Source: Candidatus Sericytochromatia bacterium (GTDB lineage Bacteria; Cyanobacteriota; Sericytochromatia; UBA7694). From it: a DNA stretch of 64,000 nt. Of this stretch, positions 9,312 to 58,342 are shown in pieces. The notes under the pieces were generated by a model. That model had not been told where the DNA came from, did not search any database, and saw only the letters and a program-made list of their open reading frames with translations. The stretch spans positions 12,673-76,672 of the forward strand of contig JBFWRL010000004.1 of the NCBI GenBank assembly GCA_050248915.1. Reading direction: 5' to 3'. A program made the position numbers and the translations under genes. Numbering within the stretch: position 1 is the first letter of the stretch; every line of letters starts with the position of its first letter.

Positions 9312-9333
9312 AAAAAAGGCCCCCGGAGGGGCC
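9312..9333 (-). terminator. putative intrinsic terminator after the EEP-family gene
   Basis: On the minus strand GGCCCC-TCCG-GGGGCC is followed by a T7 run immediately downstream of the stop at 9377. Confidence 0.5.
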
Positions 9334-9376
9334 AGCGTAGAGAGTTGGGAAAGAAAAAAAACTGTTTAGCGATCAG

Positions 9377-41397: not shown

Positions 41398-41644
41398 GAC
41401 CCGCTATCCAAACAAAACAAATGCGCCATTGATCGTTGATTCGAATACTGTATTGGCCTTTGCGATTGCCTTTCAAGGCTTCCAGTTTATTGCCTGGGGG
41501 CACCTTTAAAAAATCCAGATCGACCGCTGCATGGATTTGCAGCAATTTACGTAGCGCAATGCGATGCAGACTGGGAGGCAATCTACGCGGGGTTTTGCCG
41601 TGAAATAGCTGTTCTGTTTCTTTGTTGGCAAAGCTTTTGATCAT
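41363..41644 (-). CDS. higB: HigB-family toxin (RelE/ParE superfamily, plasmid-maintenance killer)
   Basis: 93 aa. FANKETEQLFHGK...GNRKGQYSIRINDQWRICF is typical of HigB. Confidence 0.75.
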   Translation of the reverse strand: MIKSFANKETEQLFHGKTPRRLPPSLHRIALRKLLQIHAAVDLDFLKVPPGNKLEALKGNRKGQYSIRINDQWRICFVWIAGHADAVEIVDYH

Positions 41645-41689
41645 GCTTTGATATTAACGCAATGCAATAATAACGTCAATCGTTAATAG

Positions 41690-41751
41690 TTGCTGTGGCG
41701 AGTATTTGTAAGTACCCAGGGCTGAGTGCCGAAGAGGTGATGGGGCTTTAG
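41690..41751 (+). repeat. 3'-terminal fragment of the Rpn-like (DUF4351 tail) gene, convergent with paralog D
   Basis: It encodes ..VASICKYPGLSAEEVMGL*. It is homologous to the 3' ends at 50893-50963, 51900-51983 and 46660-46724. Confidence 0.6.
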
Positions 41752-44700
41752 GGCTGTTGCGGGCAAGGCTTTTGAGCTGCTGTGCTGAAAGAGGCATTGG
41801 CAGGCAGCATATTGCAGGCATAGGTGGTCTGTTCGATGCGGTTGCTGGGAATATTGGCTGAGCGCGCTTCAATCCAGCCCCCTTTTAAGGCCTGGTTGGG
41901 GATATTTACAAACATATTTTGAATCTCTACCCCATCACTGTCGATTTTGGACTCTAAAAAGACAGGCTTTTGTTTGATTTCTTTGCCCACTTCTGAGCGG
42001 GGCTGAAAGATAATTTCTGTCTTGGATGGAGCAAAACCTGTACCTGTGAGGTCGAGTTGGGGAGCGGCTTTGTCGGTGGTGATATCTTGGCCGTCTTTCT
42101 CTTTGGGCCATTCAGCCGAGAACAGTTTGGGGCCGAGGAATACTTCGAGATTCATTGTGAACATCTCTTTGTGCTGAGAAAGCCAAGTATCGTATTCCCA
42201 TAATGTATTAAAAACAGAAAGAACAGCTGAGCGAACAGGTTGCGTTTGTCCAAATGAGGTCATCATTAAGTAGCCAGCTTTATTTGTTGAAAAATCACTG
42301 CTGATATAAGGTTTTCTTCTTTTAAGGCCAGATTCAGTGACTTCTTTGACGGCCTCTCCTTCGAGATTATTCACTCCCACCATCCCTGGAATCAAAAATT
42401 CACGCACCTTACGAAACTCACCATTAATGGTTTGACTTAATTTTGGACCTGGAGAAACGGCTCTCACATATAGGTTCCGAGGTTCTCTGATATTTTTATC
42501 TGCTTGCAAAAGCAGATATACCGCAGAAAGAGGCTCTGTGCCTGAACTAGAAACGCTTAATGGTGTTGCAACTGAATGACTGGCTTTGACGATATGGGTT
42601 TTGTGATAGCCAATGTGCGGAAGTGTAATATCTGGAAACAAACTTACATTTTTATGAATGATTGCATCTGTCGCGAATTTGATAAAATAATCAGCTAAAT
42701 GGTCTCTCTGGGATGAATTGTTTTTTTGTTTTAAAACTGCATTTAATGCAGCAGTAGAACGTAAGGTGTCTTTGATTTGCTTTTTTTGGTTTAAGCCATA
42801 TTCTTGAACTACATCAGCAATTATTGACGCTCCCCCGTAATGATTAAATAGATGAGTTCAAAAGGGTACCGTTAAATAAGGGCTTCGAGCCCTTCCTGCT
42901 ATTCTTTTGAGATACATGCTTTCAGTTAATTGGTTTAAAATATCAAATCTTTCTGCATATTCATATAAAACGGGTACAGTTTTTCCCAAACCTAACTCTG
43001 TTGAGTTTAGTTCTGTGGCAACGGTGCCCATTAATGCTGCTGTGCCTTCAATTAACCAGCCATCAAGAGCTGAATTTATTTCGTCTTCGGGTGTGTTTGT
43101 ATAAGCTTGTTGAAATACATGAAATAATTCATGCATTGCTGTTTCAGAACGTACTTGTCCCCAATAATCTGGTTTGAGTAGACCTCCTAAGGTACCTTGA
43201 GTAATATTTAATTGAATAGCAGAGCCCTTATATGTAGTTTCTTCATACAATTCATAAGCAACACCATTAGCAGAGCTAGGAACATTTAAATTTGTTGTAA
43301 GTAAATTTTGAAAGCGGTTAACAAGAAATACAGGGATTTTCGGGTTTTTAAACCCACGATCAAGATAAGGCGGAGGTTTTTTTTACTTCAATTCAAGATA
43401 TTGAATATAGGCTTTTTCTAGGTATTCTTTTGCATTTTTTAGAGCCTCCGGACAGGCTACTCCATGGTTGTCGCTAATAAAAAAATATTTTGAAGAATCA
43501 TCAAACTGAGATTTTTGGGGTGGTGTACAATTCGAATTTTGATTTTGGATTTGGAAAGGAAGGGTTATGTTATTTTCATTATTTAGGAATTGATCCATTT
43601 CCTTTGATGTATAGGCTATCTCGCGAGAGAAAAAACCAAATTTCTGTACCCAAAGCGGGAAATTATGGTGAGTAATATCGCTAAAATTTTCCACATCAGG
43701 TCTTTTTGCTAAGAGAGGGTAATATCCCCAAGATAAAGAATTAAATACATTCATACTTGACGTATCCCAAATGGTTGGTGCACTAAATTTTTGGAAATAA
43801 TTATAAATGGGTAAATTGAGACGTGCTATTTGATTAAGCGTCATCCCCATCGGTTCAATTTTCACGATGGGTGCAGCAAAAACCCACCCTGGAGCACAAT
43901 CATCAGGATCGTTGGGATTGGTACAATTTTGTTTGCGAGAAGCTACCTCTTTCTGCTGGCGCATAACCACCACTGTCGGCGCACTTAAGGCCCCCGCAGG
44001 CAAATCCAGCTTGGCCACCCCCTGCAACTCCACAGTCCCCCCGGCTGGCCCAATCTGCTTGATCCCCGGCGGATACGCCGCCTGCTGATTCGTCGTCCAC
44101 CAGGCCATCTGAAACTCTTTCACTGTATCGGTCTTAAACTTAAGCACTAGATTCTGCCCATCGGGGTTGTACCAATCGCTCGGCACAGGCACAGGCCGCA
44201 CACCCAACAAAAACCAGCGGTTGAGGTCAATGGGCTTGCCTTGTTTGGAGCTGAGGGTGTCTTTGACATAATACAGCTCATCGCTCACTTCTAAGCTGCT
44301 ATTGGGTTTCCACTGGCCTTGCAGGTGCAGCAAAGCCTCGTAGCTGTGCTGCGGCAGGCGAATGGTGGCTTGCCCATCGCTGGCATCGCCATCGAGAATT
44401 TCCAGCTTCTTGCCAGTCCCCGCTTCGAGCACGAGTTGAAACGCACCGTTTTCGGGAATCTTGACCTGCTGCTTGCCGTTTTTGGCCTGGGTCATAAAAC
44501 GCACGACAAAGATCTGGGGCAGATTAAAGCTCTGCACAGCAAAGCCTTCCTCTGTGGGCTTTTCGGCAAGGGCCTGCTCCAGCGCGGCATTGAGCTGGGC
44601 ATTTTTATCGGCGGGCAGGTTTTGCGCCAAGGGTGTGGTTTTCACCCTATTGGGAAAGGTCACCTTTTCAGGCGGCTTTTGGCCTGTGTGTCCAACGATG

Positions 44701-44756
44701 AGTAAGCTAAGTAAAAGGATAGAAAATAAGGTTCTGTATTTCTTCATTCTGTTCAA
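41748..44756 (-). pseudogene. frameshifted paralog (copy D) of the giant HExxH lipoprotein family
   Basis: Three ORF pieces (43383..44756, 42858..43250, 41748..42641) align in order with the N-domain, the HExxH core (AMHELFHVFQ) and the C-domain (..TYACNMLPANASFSTAAQKPCPQ) of paralog B (51986..55021). Confidence 0.7.
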
Positions 44757-45733
44757 CTTTGGGTGAGTGAGTCAAATGCTTGTAAACGCATTTTGAGCAT
44801 GTGCAGACTTTCTCGGATGGCGGTAATGTCTGGCAAATCGCCGTAAACCAAAGGACGAAAACTACTTTGATAGGTTTGGTTCAACTGCTTCCAAAGAATG
44901 TCTGTATCACTGAAAATCAGGGCATGGACCAAAGGTGCTTGATTCCATTCCCCCTGAAATTCCCGGCTGTCGGCATCGTCTTTTTGTGCGTCTTGCAAGG
45001 TCTCAAAAAACCGCCCACTGTTTACAAATTCTCTCAGCGGTTGATGATTCATTAAAATATGTAAATCATAGGTATGACGAATCTTGTTTTGAAGTTGCGC
45101 AATGGGGTCGGCATGGTAAGAGGCACGGGCCAGTGCCAAGACTTTTTCTACCAGTGTTCGCTCTGGGTGTAATACCAGAATAGAAAAGGGTTCAAGCCCA
45201 TATTGACTGATCAAGGCTTCTTGGTTTTGAGCCGCGAAGAAGTCGGCTATCATTGTGTTGATTGGGGTGGGCTGATAGGGGGACGGATTGCCGAAGGCAT
45301 TTAACTCTAAAACAAGAAATGCGCTGATCTGGCTCTGCGGTGCGGGGGCTAACTCTAAAACAGGATAAAGATGGGCCGTTCGGCGAAAGCGAGACCACTT
45401 TTTGGTGATGCCTTCCAGCTTGAGTTCGCTTAAATGGCGTGTGATTTCTTTGGAAACCTTGTCTATTCTGCTTTTGATCTGATTCCCGGTTAAACCTTCC
45501 GCCAGCAAAGCCAGATCAACATCCTCTGAAAATCGCTGGATCAGGCCAAACGCTTTGGAGAGAGAGGTTCCTCCTTTAAAGACAAATCGCTCATGATAGG
45601 GGGATTCTCCCAGCTTTTTTAAGACGGTTGTAAGCCAATAATCTTTTTCGACCCAGGTATCAGGCATTCCCAAATGAACTGCAGCAGCACGAATACTGGC
45701 TTTAAAGAGTGGTGGATTCTCATGTAAATTCAT
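44753..45733 (-). CDS. AbiEii/AbiGii-family nucleotidyltransferase toxin (DUF1814)
   Basis: FKGGTSLSKAFGLIQRFSEDVDL matches the minimal-NTase motif of AbiEii. 326 aa. Confidence 0.7.
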   Translation of the reverse strand: MNLHENPPLFKASIRAAAVHLGMPDTWVEKDYWLTTVLKKLGESPYHERFVFKGGTSLSKAFGLIQRFSEDVDLALLAEGLTGNQIKSRIDKVSKEITRHLSELKLEGITKKWSRFRRTAHLYPVLELAPAPQSQISAFLVLELNAFGNPSPYQPTPINTMIADFFAAQNQEALISQYGLEPFSILVLHPERTLVEKVLALARASYHADPIAQLQNKIRHTYDLHILMNHQPLREFVNSGRFFETLQDAQKDDADSREFQGEWNQAPLVHALIFSDTDILWKQLNQTYQSSFRPLVYGDLPDITAIRESLHMLKMRLQAFDSLTQS

Positions 45734-46458
45734 CGAATATACCAGTTGCGGTAGTTTGGAAAAGTGTCTTTGTCTATTTTGAGGCGATAACGACTGCTGG
45801 GATTGAGGGTTTGCGCCAAAGTCTGGGCCAGTCTCTTTTTTCCCAGACTTTCCAAAACCAAACCCACAAAGGCCCGGCAGGAGGGGGGATAATTCAGGGC
45901 CAGTTGGGCAAGCTCATCTTGCTGATCCCGTTTGAGTTCTTTAATGCGCAAGCGCAATAAAACAGAAGATTTTTCTGGGGTGGTGGCAGGGATGTTATCC
46001 ATTTCCCGAATGGCATCCAGAATTTGCAAGAGATAGGTGTCTTGGACGGCTGTTTTGACATAACTGGGAATAAAGCGAATGGTGGTAGCCCCAGAAACAA
46101 TCGGCATTCGACGCGGCTTGTCAGAGGCGATGACATACTCGGTGGAGACCTGTGTGGTGAGGCCCATTTGGGTATAGGCTGGCAGCCCGGTTAAATAGGC
46201 AATGCTGTCTTTGTACAGAAGTAGCAATTTATCCAGGAGGCCGCGTGTTGTGGGTGGGAGTTCGCCAAAAGGGCTTTGTTCAGGTTTGTAATACAAACCC
46301 TTGGTAATGCGTTGCAAACCACCTGCTCGGTAAAGTTCGCTCAGGGCCTTTTCCAAGGCAATTTTTTTTGCCAGAGGCAGTTTAAAATCCTCCAGAGATA
46401 GCAGCGCGCCCGCCGCTGTATTTTGCACCTGTGTTTTTACCCACTTATTTACATTCAT
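45730..46458 (-). CDS. putative AbiEi-like antitoxin / regulator partner
   Basis: It lies immediately upstream of AbiEii with a 4-nt overlap. RITKGLYYKP is the kind of motif seen in AbiEi/DUF6088-type partners. The start is taken at MNVNKW. Confidence 0.45.
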   Translation of the reverse strand: MNVNKWVKTQVQNTAAGALLSLEDFKLPLAKKIALEKALSELYRAGGLQRITKGLYYKPEQSPFGELPPTTRGLLDKLLLLYKDSIAYLTGLPAYTQMGLTTQVSTEYVIASDKPRRMPIVSGATTIRFIPSYVKTAVQDTYLLQILDAIREMDNIPATTPEKSSVLLRLRIKELKRDQQDELAQLALNYPPSCRAFVGLVLESLGKKRLAQTLAQTLNPSSRYRLKIDKDTFPNYRNWYIR

Positions 46459-46620
46459 TTTGAATTGGCCTAAATTGTTTTCTGACTTGGGTTTTATTGT
46501 AATCAAGTGGACGATATAAATCAAGTTTTTTTATGAAAAACCTGATTATTTTGAACTCAAGACCTTTATGCGTGGCGGGAAAGAATGACAAGATGCCCTG
46601 CGTCTGGGTTTGCAGCAATG

Positions 46621-46724
46621 AGCGGGTAGTAATTTGCTGAACGAATACCTTAGCCGATGGCCTGCCTGTGGCGAGTATTTGCAAGTATACAGGGCTGAGC
46701 GCTGAAGAGGTGGCGGGGCTTTAG
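46621..46724 (+). repeat. internally deleted remnant of the Rpn-like gene 3' region, convergent with paralog A
   Basis: The sequence gtagtaatttgctgaacgaatacctta matches 50677-50695 and is joined directly to gccgatggcctgcctgtggcgagtatttgcaagtatacagggctgagcgctgaagaggtggcggggctttag, which matches 50893-50963. Its stop overlaps the stop of paralog A. Confidence 0.7.
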
Positions 46725-49700
46725 TGGTTTTTGCAATTCCCTGCGCTGGTAATGCGGTAATCAGCTCCTTTGGGTATCATATTGCAAACCAGTTCGATTT
46801 TTTCTTTGTATTCACTCTCTAAATTCCCTGATTTTGCATAGATATAACTTTCCTCCTCTGGGGCTGCGTCATCAGGTACTTTCACAATAATTTCCTGTTC
46901 TTGCTCAATACTGACAGGTTGGGCTAAGTTGCTGACACTGTGTGCTTTTACAGCAATATCCGGCAAATTTGCTAAACGATGTTTGAAATAAACAACCGTA
47001 TCTGTTAAAGAGAATCCTGAACCCCATAGTGCGAGCATTTTATTTTCGGTTACTCCATCTGATTCAGTAAAAGCTCTTTTGCCCCAAATGGTGGGCGAAA
47101 CAAAGGCTTTGAATTGAAACGAGATGGTTTTTTTGTCTGAATTGGTTGTGATATAGGGATTGGTGATACTTAAAATCAGGCGTACACGGTGGGGTTCAGC
47201 AGGATTGTTTTGGGTGGGCCTGTCTTCCTGGGGAATGGGAATGCCCAAGATATAAACACTTCGCGGAAGAACCCCTTTAATACTGGGGTTTCGTGATTCT
47301 GTAGGTACATTTATACGTTTTTCAAATTTGAGAGGCTCGGCCACAATTTTGGGATCAGAAAGCCATTTTACTTTGGCCAAAAGGGGTTTTTCATCCTTCC
47401 AGTTGTCCAGGGGCTTCGGATTTTTGAGTACTAAGACTCGTGTTCCTTTGGCGATAAAATCTTCTGCTTGTTCATCTGTCAAACCCTCTGCGGAGGCTCT
47501 GTCGAGGTAGATATATGCCATATAGGGGTCTTTAAACTTTTTTGGGTCTTTGTCTGATAGTTTTTGAGTTACCAGTGGAAACTCCACATAGCGATGTGCC
47601 ATTTGAAGGTTTTGGAGTGAGCTGTTGGTTACCATTTGAGGGTTGTTGGGGGTGTTGCGGGTTGTGACCAATATAGGGTTTGCACGGTCATTTGGTTGAG
47701 CGGGAATTGTGTAGTTCACTGTTTCGAGGTTGCCCGTATTATTGGCTATTGGTCGTATTTTAGGACGTTCTAAATATTTAAAATTTTCAGGCTTTTCAGA
47801 TCCCATGCCATAATCTTTTAATGCTACTTTGGCCCCAAAATTTGGAAAAGTTGTATCAAGTTGAGCATAGTTATGGAGCGAGGAAACGGCACCCTCATTT
47901 GTAAATTCTCGTTTTTGAAGATAGTGAACATTTATATCGTGAATTTTCTGAAAGGCTATTTGATTTGGATAAAAATTGCTAATAAGGTTTAATATAATAA
48001 GACGATAATAAGCATTTTCGCCGTCAGGTATATTTGGCTCTTGATATAGAGATGTTTGATTTAACAGATCTAAACCTTTACTCAAACTACCATGGTAAGG
48101 AATTTTTCCATATAAAAAGACAACAGGATTTGGGTCAATTCCGTATTTTTTGTACAATTCATGATGCTTAAAGGTACTTATGCTACCCATAAACCTACCA
48201 GAACTTTCAATTAACCAAGCTCGATCTACTGTGCTTAAAGCCCAACCCCAGGGATTGAATGCTTGGTTTGGAAGGTCAAAACTTTTTACATTTGCAACTT
48301 GAAAAGAATGATAATTTTCATGGGCAGTAGAATCTATTAAGTTGTCAATATTGGGACCTGGATCTACCCACATCTCGGCATTGCGAAACCCGTTTCCTTT
48401 TGCATAAGTGTACCCATTGGTTGCTCCTCCTGGTCCAGATGTAATTGGCTTAAGATACAGAGGGATTCCTTTGAAATCCGTACCTCCATGCCGAAAATCT
48501 TCCCACTTGGATGGCATTATTCCCCTGGCATACGGAATAAAGTCTTCACGACTATTTAGGAGAACTTCACATGCTGCATTTTTCTTTTCTTCAGAAGGAG
48601 AAACATCCCATCTTAAAATATATTGAGGTGTTAAGTCGTTGTGAGTATTGATGGGTGGGTTTGGACAAGGTTGTTCACTAACAAGAGCAATTTGAAATTC
48701 TTCTTGTTCATTATTTCCAATATAAGAAGGGGAATAAGTTCGCGGAGCTACAAGTATACGAACAAATGAAAAATGATGTATTTCATACCACTCGTGTTTG
48801 GTCATATAATGAGCTTGCTTTTTTTGGGGGGCCAGATGAAGTATTTCTGCCTGTTCCCAGAAAATGCCATTATCGGGAAACAAATAATAATGTATAGTGC
48901 TCGGCAAATATCCTTTAGCCTTTTCTAAGTCAATTTTCAAGCGTATATTTGCTGGTTTTAAGAATTGTAAGCCGCTGGGTTGGAGTTCAACAGGTGTTGC
49001 CAGATCTATTTCATCTGGACCGGGTGTAAAATCTTCATCAGGAAATTGATATACTTCATCTTTTTGTTTGATAACTATTACTTTATTCTCAGTCAAAGCC
49101 CCCGCAGGTACTTCCAATTCAGCCACCCCCGGCAGCTCCACGACCCCTCCGCCAGGCCCAATCTGCTTGATCCCCGGTGGAAAGGGAGCCTCACCGCGCT
49201 GCTTTTGCAGGAGCAGCTCAAACTCTTTGATCTGCTTGGCCTTAAACCGCAGCACAAAAGCCTGCCCATCAGGGCTGTACCAATCACTCGGCACGGGAAT
49301 GGGTCGCAGCCCCAGCTTGAACCATTTATTATCCCGCTCATCGTGGTGCCCCTTGTGCTTGCGCTCTTTGCTGAGGGTGTCTTTAACATAATAAAGCTCA
49401 TCGCTGACATCTAAGCGGCTATTGTCTTTGGCCTCTTCTAAATGCACCCAGGTTTTGAGCGTGCTTGCGGGCATTTGCACCCGTGCTTCGCCATCGCGGG
49501 CATCTTTGTCTAGTAGCTCAAAGCGTGGGCCAGCTTCGAGTGTGAGCATAAATTCACCTGTTTCAGGCATGAGAATCTGGCGCTTGCCCTTGGCCTCTTT
49601 GCTTTTGAATTCAAGCACATAGGCGGCGTTGTTATCCTGTTCATTGTGTTTGTCATCTTTGTCTTTGTCGCTGGCTGTGCTGAAACCCGTGCCAGGGTCA

Positions 49701-49963
49701 ACACTTGGGTTGTCTAAAAAAGCCCTGAGCAGGGCGCTCACTTCGTCTACTTCGCTGGGCTCGGGGGCCTCTAGCAAAGTGGTTGTGACCATATTGGGAA
49801 AGGTCACTTTTTCAGGTGCTTTGACTGTGCCCGTATTGGCCACGGTTTGTACCTGTGCCTGCTCAGGGCTTTTGCTGCTTTGCTGGGCCGGGGGAATCCA
49901 AGAGCAGGAAGCCAGGAGTGTTGCCAGCAGAGTCGAAGATAGGTATTTGAGAGATGCTTTCAT
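46721..49963 (-). CDS. giant HExxH lipoprotein, paralog A (putative secreted/surface zincin-like protease)
   Basis: 1080 aa. Lipobox LLASC. N-domain with PEKVTFPNMV and PGIKQIGPGGGVVELPGV. HExxH at about 48305-48325 (TAHENYHSFQ). C-domain GSGFSLTDTVVYFKHR...VCNMIP. A strong SD caaggaggtaattaaATG precedes it. Confidence 0.85.
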   Translation of the reverse strand: MKASLKYLSSTLLATLLASCSWIPPAQQSSKSPEQAQVQTVANTGTVKAPEKVTFPNMVTTTLLEAPEPSEVDEVSALLRAFLDNPSVDPGTGFSTASDKDKDDKHNEQDNNAAYVLEFKSKEAKGKRQILMPETGEFMLTLEAGPRFELLDKDARDGEARVQMPASTLKTWVHLEEAKDNSRLDVSDELYYVKDTLSKERKHKGHHDERDNKWFKLGLRPIPVPSDWYSPDGQAFVLRFKAKQIKEFELLLQKQRGEAPFPPGIKQIGPGGGVVELPGVAELEVPAGALTENKVIVIKQKDEVYQFPDEDFTPGPDEIDLATPVELQPSGLQFLKPANIRLKIDLEKAKGYLPSTIHYYLFPDNGIFWEQAEILHLAPQKKQAHYMTKHEWYEIHHFSFVRILVAPRTYSPSYIGNNEQEEFQIALVSEQPCPNPPINTHNDLTPQYILRWDVSPSEEKKNAACEVLLNSREDFIPYARGIMPSKWEDFRHGGTDFKGIPLYLKPITSGPGGATNGYTYAKGNGFRNAEMWVDPGPNIDNLIDSTAHENYHSFQVANVKSFDLPNQAFNPWGWALSTVDRAWLIESSGRFMGSISTFKHHELYKKYGIDPNPVVFLYGKIPYHGSLSKGLDLLNQTSLYQEPNIPDGENAYYRLIILNLISNFYPNQIAFQKIHDINVHYLQKREFTNEGAVSSLHNYAQLDTTFPNFGAKVALKDYGMGSEKPENFKYLERPKIRPIANNTGNLETVNYTIPAQPNDRANPILVTTRNTPNNPQMVTNSSLQNLQMAHRYVEFPLVTQKLSDKDPKKFKDPYMAYIYLDRASAEGLTDEQAEDFIAKGTRVLVLKNPKPLDNWKDEKPLLAKVKWLSDPKIVAEPLKFEKRINVPTESRNPSIKGVLPRSVYILGIPIPQEDRPTQNNPAEPHRVRLILSITNPYITTNSDKKTISFQFKAFVSPTIWGKRAFTESDGVTENKMLALWGSGFSLTDTVVYFKHRLANLPDIAVKAHSVSNLAQPVSIEQEQEIIVKVPDDAAPEEESYIYAKSGNLESEYKEKIELVCNMIPKGADYRITSAGNCKNH

Positions 49964-50063
49964 TTAATTACCTCCTTGCGGGTAGAGGATATAGCGGCCT
50001 GTATTGGCCAGGGTGTCTTGGACCTCCACCTCTAGCGTATGGCCTGGCAGGCGATAGGGCAAG
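49964..50063 (-). repeat. about 100-bp boundary repeat: 3' end of a 930-aa-type gene plus SD, upstream of paralog A
   Basis: It is nearly identical to 55022-55122 and to the genuine 3' end of the 930-aa gene at 58343-58445, which encodes ..LPYRLPGHTLEVEVNDTLANTGRYILYPQGGN*. Confidence 0.8.
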
Positions 50064-50111
50064 AGGTAAATACCAATGGTCTGTATACTTTTGTATGTTA
50101 TAATGGACTGA

Positions 50112-50963
50112 ATGAGTAAACACCGAATTCATTGGGATCATTATTTCAGTCAATGGCTGGCACACGCTTTGCCCCGCCATGATTTGGTGGTTGAAGAAAA
50201 ACCCCAGTTCAGTCAATTGCCCTTAGAAGCAGACGTTTTAATTATTGCGGCTTCTCAGGCCAAGTCTGCATGGCAAAAGCATCCCCTGTGGTGTCATTTG
50301 AGCCCTTATACGGTGCTGGAGTTTAAGTCTGTCGTCGATCCCTTTCGCGCTCATGATTTGGAAACGCTGTCTGCTTATGTGTCTCTGACCCATCGTCAAC
50401 ACCCCTTGTCGTTGCCTACAGAGGTAAGCGGTTGGTTGGTTGTTTCGGCGATGAACAAAGCGTTGCGGAGCCGTTTGCAAAGTTATGGGATTCAATTGGA
50501 ATCACGGCTATCTGGGTTTTGGCAGGCAGAGACGACGTTTTATCGTCTGGGAGTGGTGGAGTACAACCATTTGCCAAATACCGAAGCTTTTTTTGAGTTA
50601 AAAACCTTTATGCGCTCAGGACAAGCGTTGCGAGAAACCCTGCGCATGGGTTTAAAGCACTTAGCAGGTAGTAATTTGCAGAACGAATACCTTACAATAA
50701 TTTCAGCGCTACACAAACAGGAGGCCGAAGCCGTGATTCAGGTATTGGAAAGTGAAAAAGAGAATGTGGCTTGGGTTGTGGAGCAGTTATTAGAGAAGTC
50801 TCCCGACTTGAGTGAAAAGATCCCCTTCATTCAAGCACAGAAATCTTCGGGTAAGCTAGAAGGGTTGCGTGAGACCGCCCGCCAGATGAAAGCAGATGGC
50901 TTGCCTGTGGCGAGTATTTGCAAGTATACAGGGCTGAGTGCTGAAGAGGTGGCCGGCCTTTAG
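50112..50963 (+). CDS. Rpn-family / DUF4351-tail protein (putative PD-(D/E)XK recombination-promoting nuclease/transposase-like)
   Basis: 283 aa. The C-terminal ..ARQMKADGLPVASICKYTGLSAEEVAGL is the characteristic DUF4351 tail of Rpn/YhgA-like proteins. The N-terminal region is weakly nuclease-like. Confidence 0.55.
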   Translation: MSKHRIHWDHYFSQWLAHALPRHDLVVEEKPQFSQLPLEADVLIIAASQAKSAWQKHPLWCHLSPYTVLEFKSVVDPFRAHDLETLSAYVSLTHRQHPLSLPTEVSGWLVVSAMNKALRSRLQSYGIQLESRLSGFWQAETTFYRLGVVEYNHLPNTEAFFELKTFMRSGQALRETLRMGLKHLAGSNLQNEYLTIISALHKQEAEAVIQVLESEKENVAWVVEQLLEKSPDLSEKIPFIQAQKSSGKLEGLRETARQMKADGLPVASICKYTGLSAEEVAGL

Positions 50964-51227: not shown

Positions 51228-51512
51228 ATGCGTTTGCCAGATCAAATCCGTACTATTTCATCCGCCCACAAACATGGGGTAACTGAAACCCAAATTTTAG
51301 ACAGCTTGTACAACCCCTACCAACGCCCCTTGCTATTGCGTTCAGAGTCTGACCCGACTGTGGTACTGGCTCTGGCGGAAACAGAAGATGGAGAATTGTT
51401 TGAAATTGGCTATGTACCTGAGCAAGAGGGTGTGGCTAGAGTGATTCATGCCATGCCCATGCGCCTCAGTTACCAAAAACGCTATCACACCAAGAGGAAA
51501 AGGCGAAGATGA
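51228..51512 (+). CDS. putative BrnT-like toxin (DUF497)
   Basis: 94 aa. AHKHGVTETQILD...LFEIGYV...ARVIHAMPMR resembles BrnT. It is paired with the downstream antitoxin by an ATGA overlap. Confidence 0.5.
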   Translation: MRLPDQIRTISSAHKHGVTETQILDSLYNPYQRPLLLRSESDPTVVLALAETEDGELFEIGYVPEQEGVARVIHAMPMRLSYQKRYHTKRKRRR

Positions 51513-51781
51513 AACGAACTGTGCCCCAAACGCTTGCTGAATGTCAAACAGATGAGCAACGTGCAGACTATCTTGTTAAACATGATGTCTTTGAAAGCGA
51601 TGAATTCAAGTATGAAGGGGTGGCCGAGCCTCCCCGTCGTCGCTTGATGCAGCAATTGCATATGCGGATTGACGAAGAAACCATTGCCCGTCTGCGCAAA
51701 GTGGCTGACAGTAAGCGCATGGGGTATCAGACGTTGGCCAGGATGTGGCTGATAGAGCGTTTGGAACAGGAAGAAGTCTGA
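51509..51781 (+). CDS. putative BrnA-like antitoxin (RHH/CopG-like)
   Basis: ..RIDEETIARLRKVADSKRMGYQTLARMWLIERL resembles the BrnA C-terminus (..GIPYQTLI..). Confidence 0.55.
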   Translation: MKRTVPQTLAECQTDEQRADYLVKHDVFESDEFKYEGVAEPPRRRLMQQLHMRIDEETIARLRKVADSKRMGYQTLARMWLIERLEQEEV

Positions 51782-51785
51782 GGCA

Positions 51786-51983
51786 ATGGGTTTGGCCGCA
51801 GAACGTCAGGAATTGAGAAAGACCATGCTTGAGTTGGTGAAAGAAGATGTTGAAAAAACATTACAAGCACGTGAACTTCAAAGTAAACGCGAAAGCGCCC
51901 GCCAGATGAAAGCCGATGGCTTGCCCGTGGCCCGAATTTGCAAGTACACAGGGCTGAGCGCTGAAGAGGTGGCGGGGCTTTAG
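51786..51983 (+). pseudogene. truncated Rpn-like gene fragment (DUF4351 tail only), convergent with paralog B
   Basis: A 65-aa ORF ending ..ARQMKADGLPVARICKYTGLSAEEVAGL*. Its N-terminal part is unrelated to the intact gene at 50112. Confidence 0.55.
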
Positions 51984-51985
51984 GG

Positions 51986-54900
51986 CTATTGAGGACAGGG
52001 CTTTTGAGCTGCTGTGCTGAAAGAGGCATTGGCAGGCAGCATATTACAGGCAAGAGTTGCATCAATGAGTCGGTTGCTGGGGATATTGGCTGTTTGCCCC
52101 TCTACCCAACCGCCACGCAGAGCTTCGTTGGGAATATCCACCACAAATTTTTGAATTTCAACTCCGTCACTGTCTGCTTGAGAGTTGAGAAAATGGGCTT
52201 TGCGCTTAAGATTTTTGTCTATTCCTGAGCGGGGTTCAAATACGATTTCTGTCTGAGTAGGTGTGAATCCAGTCCCTGTGATTAAAAGCTGTGGCAACCC
52301 TTTTTCAGCTGCTTGGCTGAGCTCGTTGTCCTCTTGGGGCCATTCTGCGGAAATGAGCTTGGGGCCGAGGAATACTTCAAGGTTCATGGTGAATTTTTCT
52401 GTATAAGCTTGTGTCCAAATGTCTGTTTCCCAGAGAGTATTAAAGACAGATAAAATGGCTGATTGAACAGGTTGATTTTGACCAAAAAGAGGCATCATAA
52501 AATGCCCTGATTTATCAAAAGCAAAACCACTGCTGATATATGGTTTGCGTTTTTTACCACTGGCTTCAGTTATTTCTTTGACCGCTTCTCCTTCCAGATT
52601 ATTCACACCGACCAAACTGGGCGCTAAAAACTCTTTGACTTTTCTGGCTTGTTGATTAATGGTGTGGGTCAAATTGGGATCAGGAGAAATGGCGCGAACG
52701 TATAAGTTGCGCGGTTGCAGAATCTTCTTATCCGCTTGTAAGAGCATGTATATGGCAGATAGGGGTTCTGTGCCGTTGGTGCTAATGTGAAGTGGGGATT
52801 GGACTGTATGATTGGCTTTGACGACATGGGTATGCCGGAAAGCGACATGGGGCAATGAATAACTGGAGAAAAGGCAAATATCTTTGTGGATGATGGCATC
52901 TGTGGCAAAACGCGTAAAATAATCACTGAGAAGGGTGTCATCTTTTTTCTTTAAAAATGCTGCCAGAGCACCTGTTGAACGAGGTGTGTTTGGGGTATTG
53001 GCTGGTCTTTTTCTAAAGTTTAAGCCGTATTCTTTAAAGAGTTCAGCTATGCCGTTGGGGCCGTAATAGTTCGCAAAATGGGTCCACAAGGGAACTGTGT
53101 CATAAACACTGCGATTTTCGTTATAATCACGTAAATAATAAAAACTTTTTTCCAGTTGTTCCAGAGAACGAACACGCTCATAGTAGCTGTAAACTTGGGG
53201 ATCTATTGCTTCTAATCCAATATCTGCTCTTCTCGTCTCGACCGCAAAAGGCCCCATATATGCTGCTGTGCCTTCGAACATCCAGCGATCACCGATGGAT
53301 GCGTCATCTTCAGGTGTTTGCAAATAGGCATCTTGAAAAATATGAAACAACTCATGTGCGCTTGTATCTGCAAAATTGTGTCCCCAAAAATCTCGGCCAC
53401 CTACCAAACTGTCTTTTTCGATATTCATTTGCATAGCTGAGCCTTGATAGACATTGTTTTTATAAATGGGATAAGCTACGCCATTTGCATTTTGGGGGGT
53501 GGTAGATGCAATGTCCCTCAAGAGATCTTGAAAGCCCTCTACTATAAAAACAGGAATTTTGGTCTCCTCCAGATCGGTTGGAGAATAAAATTGTGGAGGT
53601 GCTTTCATATCCCAACTGGCATAGACAGAATAGGCATTTTCAAGATATTTTTTTATACTGTCCATGGCTTCTGGGCAAGCTTCGCCATCATTGTCGCTAA
53701 TATAAAAGTGTTCTGTAATTTCTCGTTGAAACGTACCCTTTTTTTGACAAGTAGGATTATAGCTCTGAATTTTAAAAGACTCTGATTCAAAAAACTGATC
53801 TACACTGGGTGTATAGTGTTGTTGCTTTGAAAAATAGGCGAATTCTTGGATCCAAAGAGGAAAATTATGATGTGTAATATCACTAAATTTTCGGACATCT
53901 GTACGTTTTGCTAAATAGGGAAAATACACCCAAGAAAAAGGTTCTAAAATATTTGCTGTTGCTACATCTTGTTGGCTTAATGGATCATAACGTTTAAAAT
54001 AATCATAAATTGGTAAATTCAGCTTAGCTGGTTGGTTGAGTTTTAATCCTAATGGTTCTATTTTAACAATGGGAGCAGCAAAAACCCAGCCAAGAGCACA
54101 GTCTTGTGGATCATGTGGATTTGGGCAATATTTTTTACGAGAAGCTACCTCTTTCTGCTGGCGCATAACCACCACCGTCGGCGCGCTTAAAGCCCCTGCA
54201 GGCAAATCCAGCTTGGCCACCCCCGGCAGCTCCACAGTCCCCCCCGCAGACCCAATCTGCTTGATCCCCGGCGGATATGCCGCCTGCTGATTCGTCGTCC
54301 ACCAGGCCATCTGAAACTCTTTCACTGTATCGGTCTTAAACTTCAGCACCAGCTTTTGCCCATCGGGGTTGTACCAATCACTCGGCACAGGCAAAGGCCG
54401 CACACCCAACAAAAACCAGCGGTTTAAATCGAGCAATTTGCCCTGTTTGGAGCTGAGTGTGTCTTTGACATAGTAGAGGTCATCGCTCACCTCTAAGCTG
54501 CTATTGGGCTTCCAGGGGCCTTGCAGGTGTAGCAAAGTCTCGTAGGTATGCTGGGGCAGGCGAATCGTGGCTTGGCCATCGCTGCCATCGCCATCGAGAA
54601 TTTCCAGCTTCTTGCCAGTCCCCGCTTCGAGCACGAGTTGAAACGCGCCATTCTCGGGAATTTTGACCTGCTGTTTGAGGTTCTTGGCCTGGGCCATAAA
54701 GCGCACGACAAAGACCTGGGGCAGATTAAAGCTCTGCACAGCAAAGCCCTCTTCGGCAGGCTTCTCGGCCAGGGCCTGCTCCAGCGCGGCATTGAGCTGG
54801 TCGTTTTTATCGGCGGGCAGGTTTGTGTCCAAGGGTGTGGTTTTCACCATATTGGGAAACGTCACCTTTTCAGGCGGCTTTTGGCCTGTGTCGGCAGCGG

Positions 54901-55021
54901 TCTGCACCTGTGCTTGTATCTGGGCCTGTCGCTGGCTGCTTTGCTGGGCCGGGGGAATCAGGCTGCAGGCAGCGAGAAAGCTGGCGAGCAGGGCTGCGGA
55001 TAGGGGTTTGAGTAAATTCAT
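51986..55021 (-). CDS. giant HExxH lipoprotein, paralog B
   Basis: 1011 aa. Lipobox FLAAC. B/D-type N-domain. HExxH at about 53341-53370 (SAHELFHIFQ). C-domain TGTGFTPTQTEIVFEPRSG...ATLACNMLPANASFSTAAQKPCPQ. The same SD and boundary repeat lie upstream. Confidence 0.85.
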   Translation of the reverse strand: MNLLKPLSAALLASFLAACSLIPPAQQSSQRQAQIQAQVQTAADTGQKPPEKVTFPNMVKTTPLDTNLPADKNDQLNAALEQALAEKPAEEGFAVQSFNLPQVFVVRFMAQAKNLKQQVKIPENGAFQLVLEAGTGKKLEILDGDGSDGQATIRLPQHTYETLLHLQGPWKPNSSLEVSDDLYYVKDTLSSKQGKLLDLNRWFLLGVRPLPVPSDWYNPDGQKLVLKFKTDTVKEFQMAWWTTNQQAAYPPGIKQIGSAGGTVELPGVAKLDLPAGALSAPTVVVMRQQKEVASRKKYCPNPHDPQDCALGWVFAAPIVKIEPLGLKLNQPAKLNLPIYDYFKRYDPLSQQDVATANILEPFSWVYFPYLAKRTDVRKFSDITHHNFPLWIQEFAYFSKQQHYTPSVDQFFESESFKIQSYNPTCQKKGTFQREITEHFYISDNDGEACPEAMDSIKKYLENAYSVYASWDMKAPPQFYSPTDLEETKIPVFIVEGFQDLLRDIASTTPQNANGVAYPIYKNNVYQGSAMQMNIEKDSLVGGRDFWGHNFADTSAHELFHIFQDAYLQTPEDDASIGDRWMFEGTAAYMGPFAVETRRADIGLEAIDPQVYSYYERVRSLEQLEKSFYYLRDYNENRSVYDTVPLWTHFANYYGPNGIAELFKEYGLNFRKRPANTPNTPRSTGALAAFLKKKDDTLLSDYFTRFATDAIIHKDICLFSSYSLPHVAFRHTHVVKANHTVQSPLHISTNGTEPLSAIYMLLQADKKILQPRNLYVRAISPDPNLTHTINQQARKVKEFLAPSLVGVNNLEGEAVKEITEASGKKRKPYISSGFAFDKSGHFMMPLFGQNQPVQSAILSVFNTLWETDIWTQAYTEKFTMNLEVFLGPKLISAEWPQEDNELSQAAEKGLPQLLITGTGFTPTQTEIVFEPRSGIDKNLKRKAHFLNSQADSDGVEIQKFVVDIPNEALRGGWVEGQTANIPSNRLIDATLACNMLPANASFSTAAQKPCPQ

Positions 55022-55126
55022 CTTAACTACCTCCTTGCGGGTAGAGGATATAGCGGCCTGTATTGGCCAGGGTGTCTTGGACCTCCACCTCTAGCGTATG
55101 GCCTGGCAGGCGATAGGGCAAGCTAA
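55022..55126 (-). repeat. about 100-bp boundary repeat (3' end of a 930-aa-type gene plus SD) upstream of paralog B
   Basis: It matches 58343-58447 including the extension ..gcaagctaaaac. There is no intact 930-aa gene upstream of B. Confidence 0.8.
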
Positions 55127-55228
55127 AACTGACCTTTACTGTTATCCCTCACCGCTACCTTTTGCTTTTACATTCTTTCTGAACGCAGTACGATAGCCTG
55201 CAAGAATCTTGTGAGAGGAGGTGCAAAC

Positions 55229-58200
55229 TTATGGGGGATCAGAGTCTGATGTACATGGGTTTACGCTCGTGAGCGAAAAATCTTCTTGCAACATATTGCA
55301 GGCAAAAGCTGTATCGTTCAGTGTATTACTCGGCGTTTCTGCTGATAATCCGTAAGTCTGACCTGATACTTTTGCATGATTCGGTATTTGGACTAATAAT
55401 TCTTGCACTTCTAGGCCATCACTGTCTGTAGATAAAACTTTTATGTCTTGAGGGTTGACTTTTGTTTTGATGGCAATTGCCCCAGATTTTGGTTGAAAAA
55501 CCATCCACGTGTCATTCGGATCAAAACCAACCCCTTGAAATGATATACGTGTAAGCGTTTCATCATCAGAAAGGGCAATTTTTTTGCTTGATTTTAACTC
55601 TGGTGCAAGGTAATAGTTTATGTCCAGAAATATCGATAAGGGTGCTTGGGCGGATTCATAGAAATTTGAATTGGGTATGGCTAAGACTAATTTTTCAACA
55701 TTGGTTTTATTTAAAATTACAGCAGGGAATCCATTTGTTTTGTCTATAAATCTCCTGTAATTTAATACTTTATCAATTCCATTTTCGCTTTTAATCAAAA
55801 ATATGCGCGCATATTTTGCAAAATCAGAGGACTCTTCTTTATTTAAAATTTTAGGAGGAATAGATGAGCCCAAATTTTTAACGATATTATTTAAAAATAC
55901 TATAATCTTTTTATTTGATGGAATATCTTGAGTATCTATTTCAAAAAAATGCACAGAATCTGCCGATAGCTCTTTTCTTAAATTTATTTTGTCCTTTGGG
56001 TAGCTTGTTTTTTTTATTTTTTCTATTTTATCAATAGGGGAAAATAATTCAATATTATAATCATTTTTAATCTTAATAAGATTGCTAGCCGAGTTCATGC
56101 CATAATGTTGGCGCGTATAAAGTGAGTGGGAATATTTTCCCCAAATTTCTTCCCAGCTGTCGTCTTCTAATTGAGCTTTTATGGTATTGTTTTGAAGAGC
56201 TAAAGTTTTTAAAGGGACAACTTGATGGTCAGAATTGTTGTGAAAAGATTGTACGTAACTGAGTAAAAAAGAGTTTCCAAGGTAATCGTTCTCTGGCTTG
56301 CTTTCAGAGCTTCCTACCAAATGCCAGAAATAGGACATGAGAGAGACTTGCTGATAAGGATCTGGCGTTAGTCTAACAGGCTTTTGGGTGTTTTTTATGC
56401 TTGGCAATAAATCTTCGATGTATGCAGTTAAGGAGCTACTTGACTGTGGACTGGACCAAATCAAAGAAAAAGCAGATTTCCCTGTAAAGTTTGTTAATAT
56501 ATTATAGTTGTTAAAATCTCTGTATAGTTGATGTGAACCCACAAAACGAGCCGTACTTTCTCCCGGTAGTCGACCATAATTACACGTTTTACAATATAAT
56601 TGGATATATGTTGAGTAGTCTAAATTTCCAAACTGGAAAACATGAAACATCTCATGATAAACTTTCTCAACACCTAATGGGTATGTTAATAGCGGTATGG
56701 TTACAGAGGATGAGCCTGCTTTAAATTCTTTTAATTTAGTTGTTGCCTCAATGAGATTTGAACCTATATTTATTCTCTGTTTTCGGGAGGTGTATCCAGG
56801 TATTTGGTCGTCTAAAATCGGCAAAGAAATGTTAGCTTGATCTTTTTTTGAGAATTTTTGGTAAGATTTTTCCGCTGCTACCATATATGCAAGGATATAA
56901 GCCGCATCAAGAGCTGAATTTGTTTGGTCATTTGTTATATGGACAAAAATATGACCAGGATCTGGTGCTGGTTCATTGCAAAGTTCTTCAAGTCTTTGTC
57001 TTGCTGAAGAAACAGATATGATTTCATTTGCTAGAGAGATTCTTGTTAAGCAAAATTTGGAGCTACCTCCTTGATTTGGCTTTGGTGCTGGTAACGTATT
57101 GGTTGAAATTAGAAAATCATTGTCGGTTAATTTGGCAAAATATGAAAAATGATTTACTAAATAACCTACTTCGTCAATATTATTAAATTGAGGGTTAATT
57201 TGTTTTGTTTCAAAGTCTAGAGATTGGCAATTTACGTTTTGAAGAGGTGATGTCTTCAACTCTGGACAGGAAATCATTTGTATTAAACCAATGTGATAGG
57301 GCCAATTTTTAAAAAAAGTGCTTAAACGCATGACTGCAGGTTTTTGAAATGTAAGCCCAGTTGGATTCATTTTTACAATAGGGGATACAAAAGTAAAATC
57401 ATTAAATGGATACGTAGAAACAACCTGCCTCATAGAGATAACTACTGGTGCTAATAATGCACTTGCTGGCACTTCAAGTTTTCCCACCCCCGGCAGCTCC
57501 ACTGTGCCCCCCGCAGGCCCAATCTGCTTGATCCCCGGTGGAAACGGAGCCTCACCGCGCTGCTTTTGCAGGAGCAGCTCAAACTCTTTGATCTGGTTGG
57601 CCTTAAAGCGCAGCACAAAAGCCTGCCCATCAGGGCTGTACCAATCACTCGGCACGGGAATGGGTCGCAGCCCCAGCTTGAACCATTTATTATCCCGCTC
57701 ATCGTGGTGCCCCTTGTGCTTGCGCTCTTTGCTGAGGGTGTCTTTAACATAATAAAGCTCATCGCTGACATCTAAGCGGCTATTGTCTTTGGCCTCTTCT
57801 AAATGCACCCAGGTTTTGAGCGTGCTTGCGGGCATTTGCACCCGTGCTTCGCCATCGCGGGCATCTTTGTCTAGTAGCTCAAAGCGTGGGCCAGCTTCGA
57901 GTGTGAGCATAAATTCACCTGTTTCAGGCATGAGAATCTGGCGCTTGCCCTTGGCCTCTTTGCTTTTGAATTCAATCACATAGGCGGCGTTGTTATCCTG
58001 TTCATTGTGTTTGTCATCTTTGTCTTTTTTATCGTCATCTTTGCCTTTGTCGCTGGCTGTGCTGAAACCCGTGCCAGGGTCAGCACTTGGGTTGTCTAAA
58101 AAGGCTTTGAGCAGGGCGCTCACTTCGTCTACTTCGCTGGGCTCGGGGGCCTCTAGCAAAGTGGTGGTGACCATATTGGGGAACGTCACTTTTTCAGGCG

Positions 58201-58342
58201 GCTTTTGGCCTGTGTCGGCAGCGGTCTGCACCTGTGCTTGTACCTGTCGTTGGCTGCTTTGCTGGGCCGGGGGGATCAGGCTGCAGGCAGCGAGAAAGCT
58301 GGCGAGCAGGGCTGCGGATAGGGGTTTGAATAAGGCTTTCAT
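55229..58342 (-). CDS. giant HExxH lipoprotein, paralog C (mosaic)
   Basis: 1037 aa. The first about 55 aa are B-like (MKALFKPLSAALLASFLAACSLIPPAQQSSQRQ). The N-domain is A-like from PNMVTTTLLEAPEPSEV onward, including a KD-rich insertion. The unique very AT-rich core has HExxH at about 56640-56668 (VYHEMFHVFQ). The C-domain is B/D-like: ..TAFACNML. Confidence 0.85.
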   Translation of the reverse strand: MKALFKPLSAALLASFLAACSLIPPAQQSSQRQVQAQVQTAADTGQKPPEKVTFPNMVTTTLLEAPEPSEVDEVSALLKAFLDNPSADPGTGFSTASDKGKDDDKKDKDDKHNEQDNNAAYVIEFKSKEAKGKRQILMPETGEFMLTLEAGPRFELLDKDARDGEARVQMPASTLKTWVHLEEAKDNSRLDVSDELYYVKDTLSKERKHKGHHDERDNKWFKLGLRPIPVPSDWYSPDGQAFVLRFKANQIKEFELLLQKQRGEAPFPPGIKQIGPAGGTVELPGVGKLEVPASALLAPVVISMRQVVSTYPFNDFTFVSPIVKMNPTGLTFQKPAVMRLSTFFKNWPYHIGLIQMISCPELKTSPLQNVNCQSLDFETKQINPQFNNIDEVGYLVNHFSYFAKLTDNDFLISTNTLPAPKPNQGGSSKFCLTRISLANEIISVSSARQRLEELCNEPAPDPGHIFVHITNDQTNSALDAAYILAYMVAAEKSYQKFSKKDQANISLPILDDQIPGYTSRKQRINIGSNLIEATTKLKEFKAGSSSVTIPLLTYPLGVEKVYHEMFHVFQFGNLDYSTYIQLYCKTCNYGRLPGESTARFVGSHQLYRDFNNYNILTNFTGKSAFSLIWSSPQSSSSLTAYIEDLLPSIKNTQKPVRLTPDPYQQVSLMSYFWHLVGSSESKPENDYLGNSFLLSYVQSFHNNSDHQVVPLKTLALQNNTIKAQLEDDSWEEIWGKYSHSLYTRQHYGMNSASNLIKIKNDYNIELFSPIDKIEKIKKTSYPKDKINLRKELSADSVHFFEIDTQDIPSNKKIIVFLNNIVKNLGSSIPPKILNKEESSDFAKYARIFLIKSENGIDKVLNYRRFIDKTNGFPAVILNKTNVEKLVLAIPNSNFYESAQAPLSIFLDINYYLAPELKSSKKIALSDDETLTRISFQGVGFDPNDTWMVFQPKSGAIAIKTKVNPQDIKVLSTDSDGLEVQELLVQIPNHAKVSGQTYGLSAETPSNTLNDTAFACNMLQEDFSLTSVNPCTSDSDPP

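Follow-up and report, generated by a model that had tools for sequence, protein, structure and literature searches.

The Paralog Array

The 64,000-nt stretch of contig JBFWRL010000004.1 analyzed here (the window) belongs to a metagenome-assembled genome (MAG) of Candidatus Sericytochromatia, a group of little-studied non-photosynthetic sisters of the cyanobacteria. It carries a tandem array of four paralogous genes encoding predicted lipoprotein proteases, all on the minus strand, which we refer to as A, B, C and D; the last of these is broken. All copies share an N-terminal module (N-module) of ~270–285 residues that ends in the motif GG(T/V)VELPGV and is followed by a far more divergent part, the core. 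Within this kind of array the N-modules of one genome are 40–90% identical and the cores only 17–23%, and the C-terminus is weakly conserved among the copies, with a ...ACNM...C motif.

Paralog C (55229–58342) encodes 1037 aa with a lipobox, the N-module, a ZU5 domain, an HExxH peptidase region and a β-rich C-terminus. It is identical (100% match, P0001) to AB7I41_01890 at NCBI, where it is labeled as a hypothetical protein. Its N-module (57485–58342) is host-like in composition, with a GC content of 0.547 and a GC content at third codon positions (GC3) of 0.62, and has 90% nucleotide identity to the N-module of A. The junction motif GGTVELPGV occupies 57485–57511 (aa 278–286), and the AT-rich 3′ module takes up the remainder (55229–57484; GC 0.347, GC3 0.27, 33% FYMINK residues). 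A domain with a predicted ZU5 fold (57122–57541, about aa 268–407) straddles the junction and has HFSYF as its last residues. The zinc-binding motif HEMFH lies at 56642–56656, with an invariant Glu, E595, 28 residues downstream.

Paralog A (46721–49963, 1080 aa) has the motif as GGVVELPGV (49124–49150) and HENYH at 48308–48322. In B (51986–55021, 1011 aa) the motif lies at 54218–54244 and HELFH at 53342–53356. In the NCBI record, B is a protein of 834 aa (P0006) with an internal Met as its start. The uninterrupted open reading frame (ORF) codes for 1011 aa and opens with the lipoprotein signal seen in A and C, and the deposited start codon is probably wrong. Paralog D (41748–44689) is frameshifted and broken into three ORFs; it is without its first ~130 nt and without the signal-peptide end, and its motif reads GGTVELQGV (44016–44042).

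A Step in Base Composition Within Each Gene

A sequence-only reading of this stretch had proposed that the variable cores of three paralogs are strikingly AT-rich compared with their conserved termini and the host. We measured GC content against a background of 300-nt windows across positions 1–41000 of the window, which have a mean GC of 0.532 (sd 0.047); only 0.6% of them have a GC of 0.35 or less. The core of C (55300–57400) has a GC of 0.342, and the cores of A (47800–48300) and B (53400–54000) have 0.345 and 0.363, respectively, in agreement with the proposal. The stretch 55800–56100, given as roughly 30% GC, is lower still (0.262). The N-domain at 57500–58300 is indeed GC-rich, but at 0.542 the stated value of above 55% was slightly too high. 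For N-module and remainder, GC is 0.538 and 0.395 in A, 0.567 and 0.421 in B, 0.547 and 0.347 in C and 0.552 and 0.390 in D, so the same pattern of a GC-rich N-module and an AT-rich remainder is seen in the fourth, broken copy, which lies beyond the three noted before.

The picture of an AT-rich core enclosed by two conserved, GC-rich termini had to be corrected, as high GC is confined to the N-terminus. From the motif, the AT-rich tract extends to the stop codon, where the trough ends; its last ~130 codons have a GC of 0.40 (A, C) to 0.49 (B). The drop is mainly synonymous. Before and after the motif, GC3 is 0.60 and 0.32 in A, 0.69 and 0.36 in B, and 0.62 and 0.27 in C, and 33 other ORFs of the window have a GC3 of 0.50–0.70. 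GC at the first and second codon positions is also lower in the cores, and FYMINK residues make up 30–33% of the cores vs. 22% of the N-modules.

The position of the step was determined with a single-change-point likelihood scan of GC3, using 200 permutations as the null. The change-point was found after codon 280 in A and after codon 286 in C, which in both cases is the exact end of the motif. In B it was found after codon 289 (about position 54154), with the motif ending at codon 268. The likelihood ratios were 66–104 in A, B and C as compared to a permutation maximum of 14–16; thus, the GC profile that the sequence-only reading had suggested as a check shows a clear step. Across all genes scanned, including relatives from other assemblies, the likelihood ratios were 34–104 (permutation maximum 12–20). 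The change-point lies at the motif end in A, C and the homologue P0004, and is 4–27 codons off in B, P0003, P0005 and P0009.

The Homology Break Coincides With the Step

Comparison of the copies at the DNA level gave a break in the same place. A and C have 89.8% nucleotide identity over nt 1–860 and no detectable similarity beyond; their homology stops within 20 nt of the motif end. B and P0004, which comes from another sample, have 89.6% identity over nt 1–805, exactly to the motif end, and are unrelated beyond. The adjacent paralogs P0008 and P0009 have 93.7% identity over nt 1–1087 and are likewise unrelated from there on. P0010 and its neighboring paralog share their 5′ end (92.5% identity) and their last 449 nt (97.6% identity); the sequence in between is unrelated. 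Thus, the compositional change-point and the homology break-point coincide at one motif.

The junction itself is a conserved GC-rich block of ~45 nt, directly after which the AT-rich sequence starts. The blocks lie at 57485–57530 (C), 54218–54260 (B) and 49124–49165 (A). Seven genes (A, B, C and four from other assemblies) have exactly the same sequence, GTGGAGCTGCCGGGGGTGG, in this block, down to the synonymous sites. This identity could be due to gene conversion together with a constrained motif, or the block could be a preferred crossover sequence. The reading frame is open across every junction, and the longest exact repeat between copies is ~48 nt. At its other end the shared 5′ tract reaches upstream of the start codons, where 114–235 nt of the 3′ end of the upstream gene are found as copies.

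N-Modules and Cores Have Different Histories

Substitution rates were estimated by the method of Nei and Gojobori. The N-modules have synonymous divergences (dS) of 0.2–0.6, with a ratio of nonsynonymous to synonymous divergence (dN/dS) of 0.07–0.24. Between core types dS rises to 0.95 to >2, and cores of different types, at 1.2 to >2, are saturated. Cores of the same type can be compared in a few cases. Here dN/dS was 0.15 for C and the locus L010 (421 codons), 0.24–0.28 for B and P0003, 0.09 for P0008 and P0010, 0.37 for P0010 and L019, and 0.24 for P0003 and L012_8001. The cores are therefore under purifying selection in every comparable pair (dN/dS 0.09–0.37).

The module of C recurs in L010, an unrelated sample, where the 3′ 1269 nt have 78.6% nucleotide identity with two gaps and a GC3 of 0.27, as in C. 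Similarly, the B-type core has a GC3 of 0.35–0.37 in three genomes. Relationships among N-modules and among cores do not agree with each other. P0008 and P0009, which are on the same contig, are 93% identical in the N-module and 26% in the core, whereas P0008 and P0010, from different samples, are 50% identical in the N-module and 70% in the core. B and P0004 are 95% identical in the N-module, and the core of P0004 clusters with that of P0007, from a MAG labeled as Melainabacteria. P0010 and L019 are 93% identical in the N-module and 85% in the core. These sequence comparisons show that the N-modules are homogenized within genomes by concerted evolution and that the core types are older than the genomes carrying them. 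Such incongruence requires recombination, either as conversion of the 5′ tract, as replacement of the 3′ module, or both.

The Step Recurs Across an Undescribed Family

No Pfam or NCBIfam model reaches its threshold for the paralogs, and none covers the family. A word-indexed protein search returned 10 homologues, and an exhaustive profile search of 1.84 billion representative proteins returned 73 hits, most of them aligned at an equivalent position in proteins of comparable size. Of 10 profile hits that were looked up, two had an organism name, and Sericytochromatia was the sole taxon named. In GTDB genomes we found nine family loci, all in Sericytochromatia or Blackallbacteria, and all relatives of the cores belong to this same Sericytochromatia-type family. 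The family thus appears, from these searches, to be confined to Sericytochromatia and relatives. When the cores were used as queries, a profile built from 11 core sequences retrieved only C itself and P0011 from the word-indexed database, and a scan of JGI metagenomes with the C core gave no relative. For C as a query, phmmer against the PDB gave no match, and an exact look-up in a contig index returned nothing despite the existence of the identical P0001.

The N-module has a higher GC3 than the remainder in all of ~25 members from ~14 other assemblies. The step amounts to 0.18–0.36 and is significant in most of them; P0007, L016 and L012_11967, whose hosts have a low or intermediate GC3, show just a small step that is not significant. 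The family is also present on low-GC contigs, with contig GC of 0.26, 0.35 and 0.37. In the member on the groundwater contig with a GC of 0.26 (L022 2939–5533, and also L023) GC3 is uniformly low (0.04–0.22) and there is no step; this member has the motif variant GGSVSLTGV and the zinc-binding motif HEMWH. Across hosts, the GC3 of the N-module follows the local background GC3 with a slope of 0.79 and a mean offset of +0.03, and that of the remainder with a slope of 0.43 and a mean offset of −0.19.

Predicted Architecture of the Products

Each of the intact copies A, B and C has its own start codon and lipobox; the latter was assigned by inspection and reads FLAAC|S in B and C and LLASC|S in A (residues 16–20). 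AlphaFold2 models had a mean predicted local distance difference test score (pLDDT) of 50 for C and 60 for B, with N-module, junction domain and C-terminal β domains modeled confidently. The ZU5 region had a pLDDT of 70–89. With both models, the top Foldseek matches in the PDB were the ZU5 domains of ankyrin and ZO-1 (probability 1.0, E = 3e-7 to 8e-6), with a target TM-score of 0.62–0.67 (for C, 0.62–0.64 at E = 3e-7). Pfam ZU5 matches C at E = 0.002 with 18.7 bits, under the cut-off of 21 bits. The junction domain is thus predicted to have the ZU5 β-sandwich fold, and as the junction motif would form the first strands of this fold, the recombination point appears to lie inside a domain.

The HExxH motif (HExxH.FQ) lies in the AT-rich part, together with most of the ZU5 domain and the C-terminal β domains. 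In the numbering of C, H563, E564, H567 and E595 are invariant in 11 of 11 aligned members, and HExxH is present in every full-length relative. The sequence-only reading's term “catalytic modules” for this part is therefore a fair one. Matches to peptidase families (M1, M9, DUF5700, DUF2268 and MXAN_6640 types) are weak and concordant, and all are below threshold; the best values were 1.4e-4 for Pfam, 1.8e-5 for NCBIfam and 0.03 for a PDB profile (M1). NF045524 scored 24.7 bits against a cut-off of 140, and Pfam DUF5700, M9 and M1 gave E-values of 1e-4 to 5e-3. Foldseek gave no peptidase match in models where the peptidase region is poorly predicted (pLDDT 22–35 in C and 43–73 in B). The HExxH and Glu pattern, along with the concordant weak matches, indicates a putative gluzincin-type peptidase. 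Judged from sequence and fold only, the products would be zinc peptidases with diversified specificities, exposed as lipoproteins at the surface or secreted, and they may process themselves at the ZU5 domain.

As to the latter, the tripeptide HFS occurs at the end of the predicted ZU5 domain only in A (aa 397–399, 48767–48775) and C (aa 398–400, 57143–57151). Other members have F-[AG]-Y at this position (FAY in B). HFS is the autoproteolysis site of the ZU5-like domains of PIDD, Unc5CL and Nup98. As it is restricted to A and C, any self-cleavage at this candidate site may be limited to some of the paralogs.

Origin of the Compositional Step

The step is a familiar signature of module shuffling by recombination and not of local hypermutation. 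On balance, we lean toward the view that it marks a recombination junction between DNA of different histories and that the AT-richness comes from a pool of exchangeable modules, since old 3′ types with a long-standing low GC3 are joined to host-like 5′ parts. Each paralog would then be a two-part mosaic. The 5′ part would run from ~114–235 nt upstream of the start through codons 1 to ~280, ending at the GG(T/V)VELPGV block inside the ZU5 domain; it would be of host composition, and gene conversion would keep it alike between copies within a genome (concerted evolution). The 3′ part, of ~730–800 codons, would comprise the remainder of the ZU5 domain, the HExxH gluzincin-like peptidase and the β-rich C-terminal domains. 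It would represent old, deeply diverged module lineages that are under purifying selection, are joined elsewhere to different 5′ parts, and have long carried a low GC3 and an AT-shifted amino acid composition. The AT-richness would in that case reflect a shared exchangeable pool, including low-GC members of the clade, that has not equilibrated to the ~53% GC of the host. Of the earlier suggestion that the modules were imported or recombined in from a low-GC donor, the recombination part holds, given the coincidence of the breaks, the jump in dS from 0.2–0.6 to saturation and the incongruence between N-modules and cores. A low-GC organism as the donor is plausible but unproven.

Several observations weigh against this explanation. 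The GC3 of the N-module is never below that of the remainder; an exchange in both directions should sometimes give the reverse, and an intrinsic mechanism would also be compatible with this one-sidedness. Orthologous cores (P0010 and L019; P0003 and L012) at a dS of ~0.5 still have a GC3 of 0.37–0.46 in hosts with a GC3 of ~0.62, a slow pace if simple amelioration is at work. By the Karlin dinucleotide signature, N-modules (δ* 102) and cores (98) alike deviate from background; the signature does not separate the cores and cannot show a foreign origin. No close relative of core A or C was found in the low-GC hosts that carry the family. These two cores have no close relatives besides L010, and no donor was identified. 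Finally, polarized substitution counts neither show nor exclude amelioration, being either balanced or biased by saturated outgroups. On a star tree of B, D and P0003 the counts were near balance. With outgroups, the cores had an excess of AT-to-GC changes (111 vs. 62; 52 vs. 33) and the N-modules an excess of GC-to-AT changes, but we rejected these counts as evidence for amelioration because parsimony with a saturated outgroup yields the same bias (~1.8:1 expected at a GC3 of 0.36).

The main competitor, which we regard as possible although rather unlikely, is that the composition diverged in situ after an old duplication, with no foreign origin. The 5′ parts, which would recombine with each other and with those of other strains, would stay at host GC3 through GC-biased gene conversion or effective selection, and the diverged 3′ types, without a recombination partner and each with a small effective population, would slide to the AT-rich mutational equilibrium. 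The same sign of the step in all ~25 genes would follow from this. So would the shrinking of the step with falling host GC (slope 0.36, p = 0.048) and its disappearance in the host with a GC of 0.26, the concerted evolution of the N-modules (90–96% within genomes vs. 50% between lineages), the finding that conservation between genomes can be higher in cores than in N-modules, and the persistence of AT-rich cores over a dS of ~0.5–1 in GC-rich hosts. Mutation in bacteria is described as AT-biased in one report (PMC2936535), and recombination is described as associated with GC in another (PMC4450053). On the other hand, the GC3 of the N-modules equals the host mean (+0.03) and does not exceed it, so it is the cores that are anomalous; AT-richness is not seen in ordinary host genes that are single-copy and have no paralogs. 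Core types that are shared across N-module lineages (P0004 and P0007; P0008 and P0010) need recombination anyway. A related idea, about which we are doubtful, is that the step is no trace of foreign DNA but a standing intragenic equilibrium in which frequent conversion, by GC-biased repair or effective selection, holds the 5′ part at host GC and many old 3′ types, perhaps kept by balancing selection, rarely recombine and hence rest at the AT-rich mutational equilibrium. If so, nature would have provided, within the genes of this family, a replicated experiment on the role of recombination in maintaining bacterial GC content, with the boundary set by a nine-residue motif in the ZU5 domain.

The other explanations appear far less probable than either of these. 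Localized hypermutation or positive diversifying selection in the cores, by an error-prone or diversity-generating retroelement (DGR)-like process, would account for the low identity of the cores of one genome relative to their N-modules, and a distinct mutational regime in the diversifying segment had been offered as the alternative to import. It is very improbable in view of the low dN/dS of all comparable core pairs and of the C module, which has kept its GC3 and acquired just two gaps at 78.6% identity to L010. Nor did 41–62 kb of the window contain a template/variable repeat pair or an inverted repeat, the sole repeats being the paralog homologies, and no reverse transcriptase was found among the ORFs scanned, which did not include those in 1–37 kb. 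Within the same limits we rejected the cores as DGR targets. It is hardly credible, too, that low GC is a by-product of the amino acids required by catalytic domains. The lower GC at first and second positions and the FYMINK enrichment are in line with it, but the largest fall is at third positions (from 0.62 to 0.27 in C) and homologous cores elsewhere span GC3 values of 0.1–0.5. We give equally little credence to a metagenome assembly chimera, in which GC-rich and AT-rich organisms were joined at the conserved motif. The window is a MAG contig and the conserved block of ~45 nt could have served such a joining; however, host-like DNA flanks each AT-rich module on both sides in one contig, the open frames and the ~48-nt limit on exact repeats speak against it, and the same gene products and arrangements are found in the independent assemblies L001 (JGI) and L002 (Logan), L003 (NCBI) and L004 (ENA), and L005 and L006.

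A GC trough alone is ordinary, and low GC in a variable segment is not evidence of hypermutation, nor automatically of a low-GC donor. The interest of the locus is that base composition and homology both break at a protein motif, within a few codons and in a replicated manner, and that this occurs in an undescribed family of predicted lipoprotein ZU5–gluzincin proteins with ~70 clusters among 1.8 billion representative proteins. This makes it a useful test case for foreign origin vs. recombination-maintained GC.

Comparison With Known Systems

Variable exchangeable gene segments are commonly AT-rich, and the Rhs genes are the textbook case. In Rhs genes a G+C-rich core (67.7%) is joined to an A+T-rich tip (46.4%), and variability arises from the exchange of old tips and not from rapid divergence (PMC2935791). 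By analogy, C-terminal displacement in Rhs would be the closest counterpart of what we see here; displacement with a GC trough is known, and its occurrence in an undescribed protein family is new. In both, a short hyperconserved motif separates a G+C-rich, conserved 5′ part from an A+T-rich, variable 3′ part (PMC2935791), and they also share the exchange of old modules, tandem full and partial copies with degenerate relics, and a GC signature at the homology boundary. Unlike Rhs, the paralogs are without YD repeats (no RHS or YD match in Pfam or NCBIfam for A, B and C) and without a PAAR, VgrG or type VI secretion context. Their variable part is ~750 aa in length compared to 130–180 aa in Rhs, homology extends across the variable parts of all members, no immunity genes lie behind them, and the AT trough ends at the stop codon. 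In addition, their conserved part is a predicted lipoprotein N-module under within-genome concerted evolution.

Polymorphic toxins were also considered. ZU5 autopeptidase domains are described in these toxins, and in bacterial surface proteins with degradative enzymes, and the polymorphic-toxin ZU5 is described with a C-terminal CxH motif (PMC3482391). Likenesses to this class are the Sec/lipoprotein export signal, a ZU5-superfamily domain beside a variable C-terminal enzyme, an HExxH metallopeptidase as effector-type domain, and a conserved N-terminal trafficking part that meets a variable C-terminal part at a conserved junction (PMC3482391). Moreover, the island that harbors the relative P0007 (L003) also encodes an integrase, an LHH toxin and a SUKH immunity protein. 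In contrast to polymorphic toxins, the paralogs have neither an immunity gene behind them nor orphan toxin cassettes, their modules are one fold family in which HExxH...E, the ZU5 remainder and ...ACNM...C align instead of many unrelated toxins, and the candidate autoproteolytic HFS is found only in A and C. We rejected an assignment to polymorphic toxin systems on the grounds that co-oriented downstream immunity ORFs are missing and the variable modules are all homologous.

With regard to the enzyme, the paralogs resemble gluzincins (clan MA(E)) in that HExxH is followed 25–30 residues on by a Glu in W-x-x-E-[GS]-[TS]-A, which fits the third zinc ligand in the M1 “NEGFA” motif; they differ in that all matches are under family thresholds and the peptidase region is modeled with low confidence. 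It is a general phenomenon that the conserved ends of multigene surface-protein families undergo concerted evolution. The paralogs are similar in having 5′ regions homogenized per genome and variable regions that persist as old types, and dissimilar in giving no sign of programmed switching or silent cassettes.

Genomic Context

The array sits in a plastic region that contains toxin–antitoxin (TA) pairs, a TnpB gene, and an Rpn-like gene with its remnants. The Rpn-like ORF (50112–50963, plus strand) belongs, by a match below the cut-off (NCBIfam TIGR01784, E = 8e-4), to a PD-(D/E)XK family of recombination-promoting nucleases or putative transposases. Remnants of 98 nt from its 3′ end are found directly after the stop codons of D (41656–41753), A (46629–46726) and B (51888–51985, overlapping an ORF at 51786–51983). 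These remnants point to a duplicated unit consisting of the 3′ end of the upstream gene, a paralog and a convergent Rpn gene.

No candidate for a co-oriented immunity gene was seen behind the paralogs. The 207-nt spacer from C to B holds only ORFs of at most 44 aa, B is followed by the Rpn remnant and a convergent TA pair, and A by the Rpn remnant and an AbiE pair. The TA genes comprise a HigB-like toxin with a helix-turn-helix antitoxin (41053–41644), a small BrnT-like ORF with a CopG-type antitoxin (51228–51781), and a DUF6088 and AbiEii pair (44753–46524, minus strand) between A and the 5′-truncated D. An IS605-type TnpB gene lies at 37556–38863; the background window with the lowest GC (0.307) begins at 38851, just beyond the upstream end of this gene. 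P0007 (L003 1921–10704) is located between a phage-type integrase and an ankyrin-repeat gene and is followed by the LHH nuclease toxin, the SUKH immunity gene and an Rpn-like gene; this conflict-system context is absent from the window.

Upstream of C lies a gene for a secreted Pro/Cys-rich protein of 930 aa (58343–61135, minus strand) without a Pfam match. Its last 114–235 nt are repeated before A (49964–50077) and B (55023–55136), which implies that the end of this gene belonged to the duplicated and converted 5′ tract. A homologue of the gene precedes the family member in L001 and L002 too. Compared by eye with the L001 homologue (7154–10000), the 930-aa protein shows only weak similarity over its N-terminal ~290 aa and near identity over its C-terminal ~640 aa, and so itself looks like a mosaic relative to this homologue.

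The AbiEii stop codon is 64 nt upstream of the start of the D homology. In L005 (7940–13309), an unrelated Sericytochromatia MAG, a DUF6088 and AbiEii pair with 52% amino acid identity lies just upstream of the 5′-truncated P0010. It is possible that the TA module inserts repeatedly into the 5′ end of the paralog genes or moves along with it.

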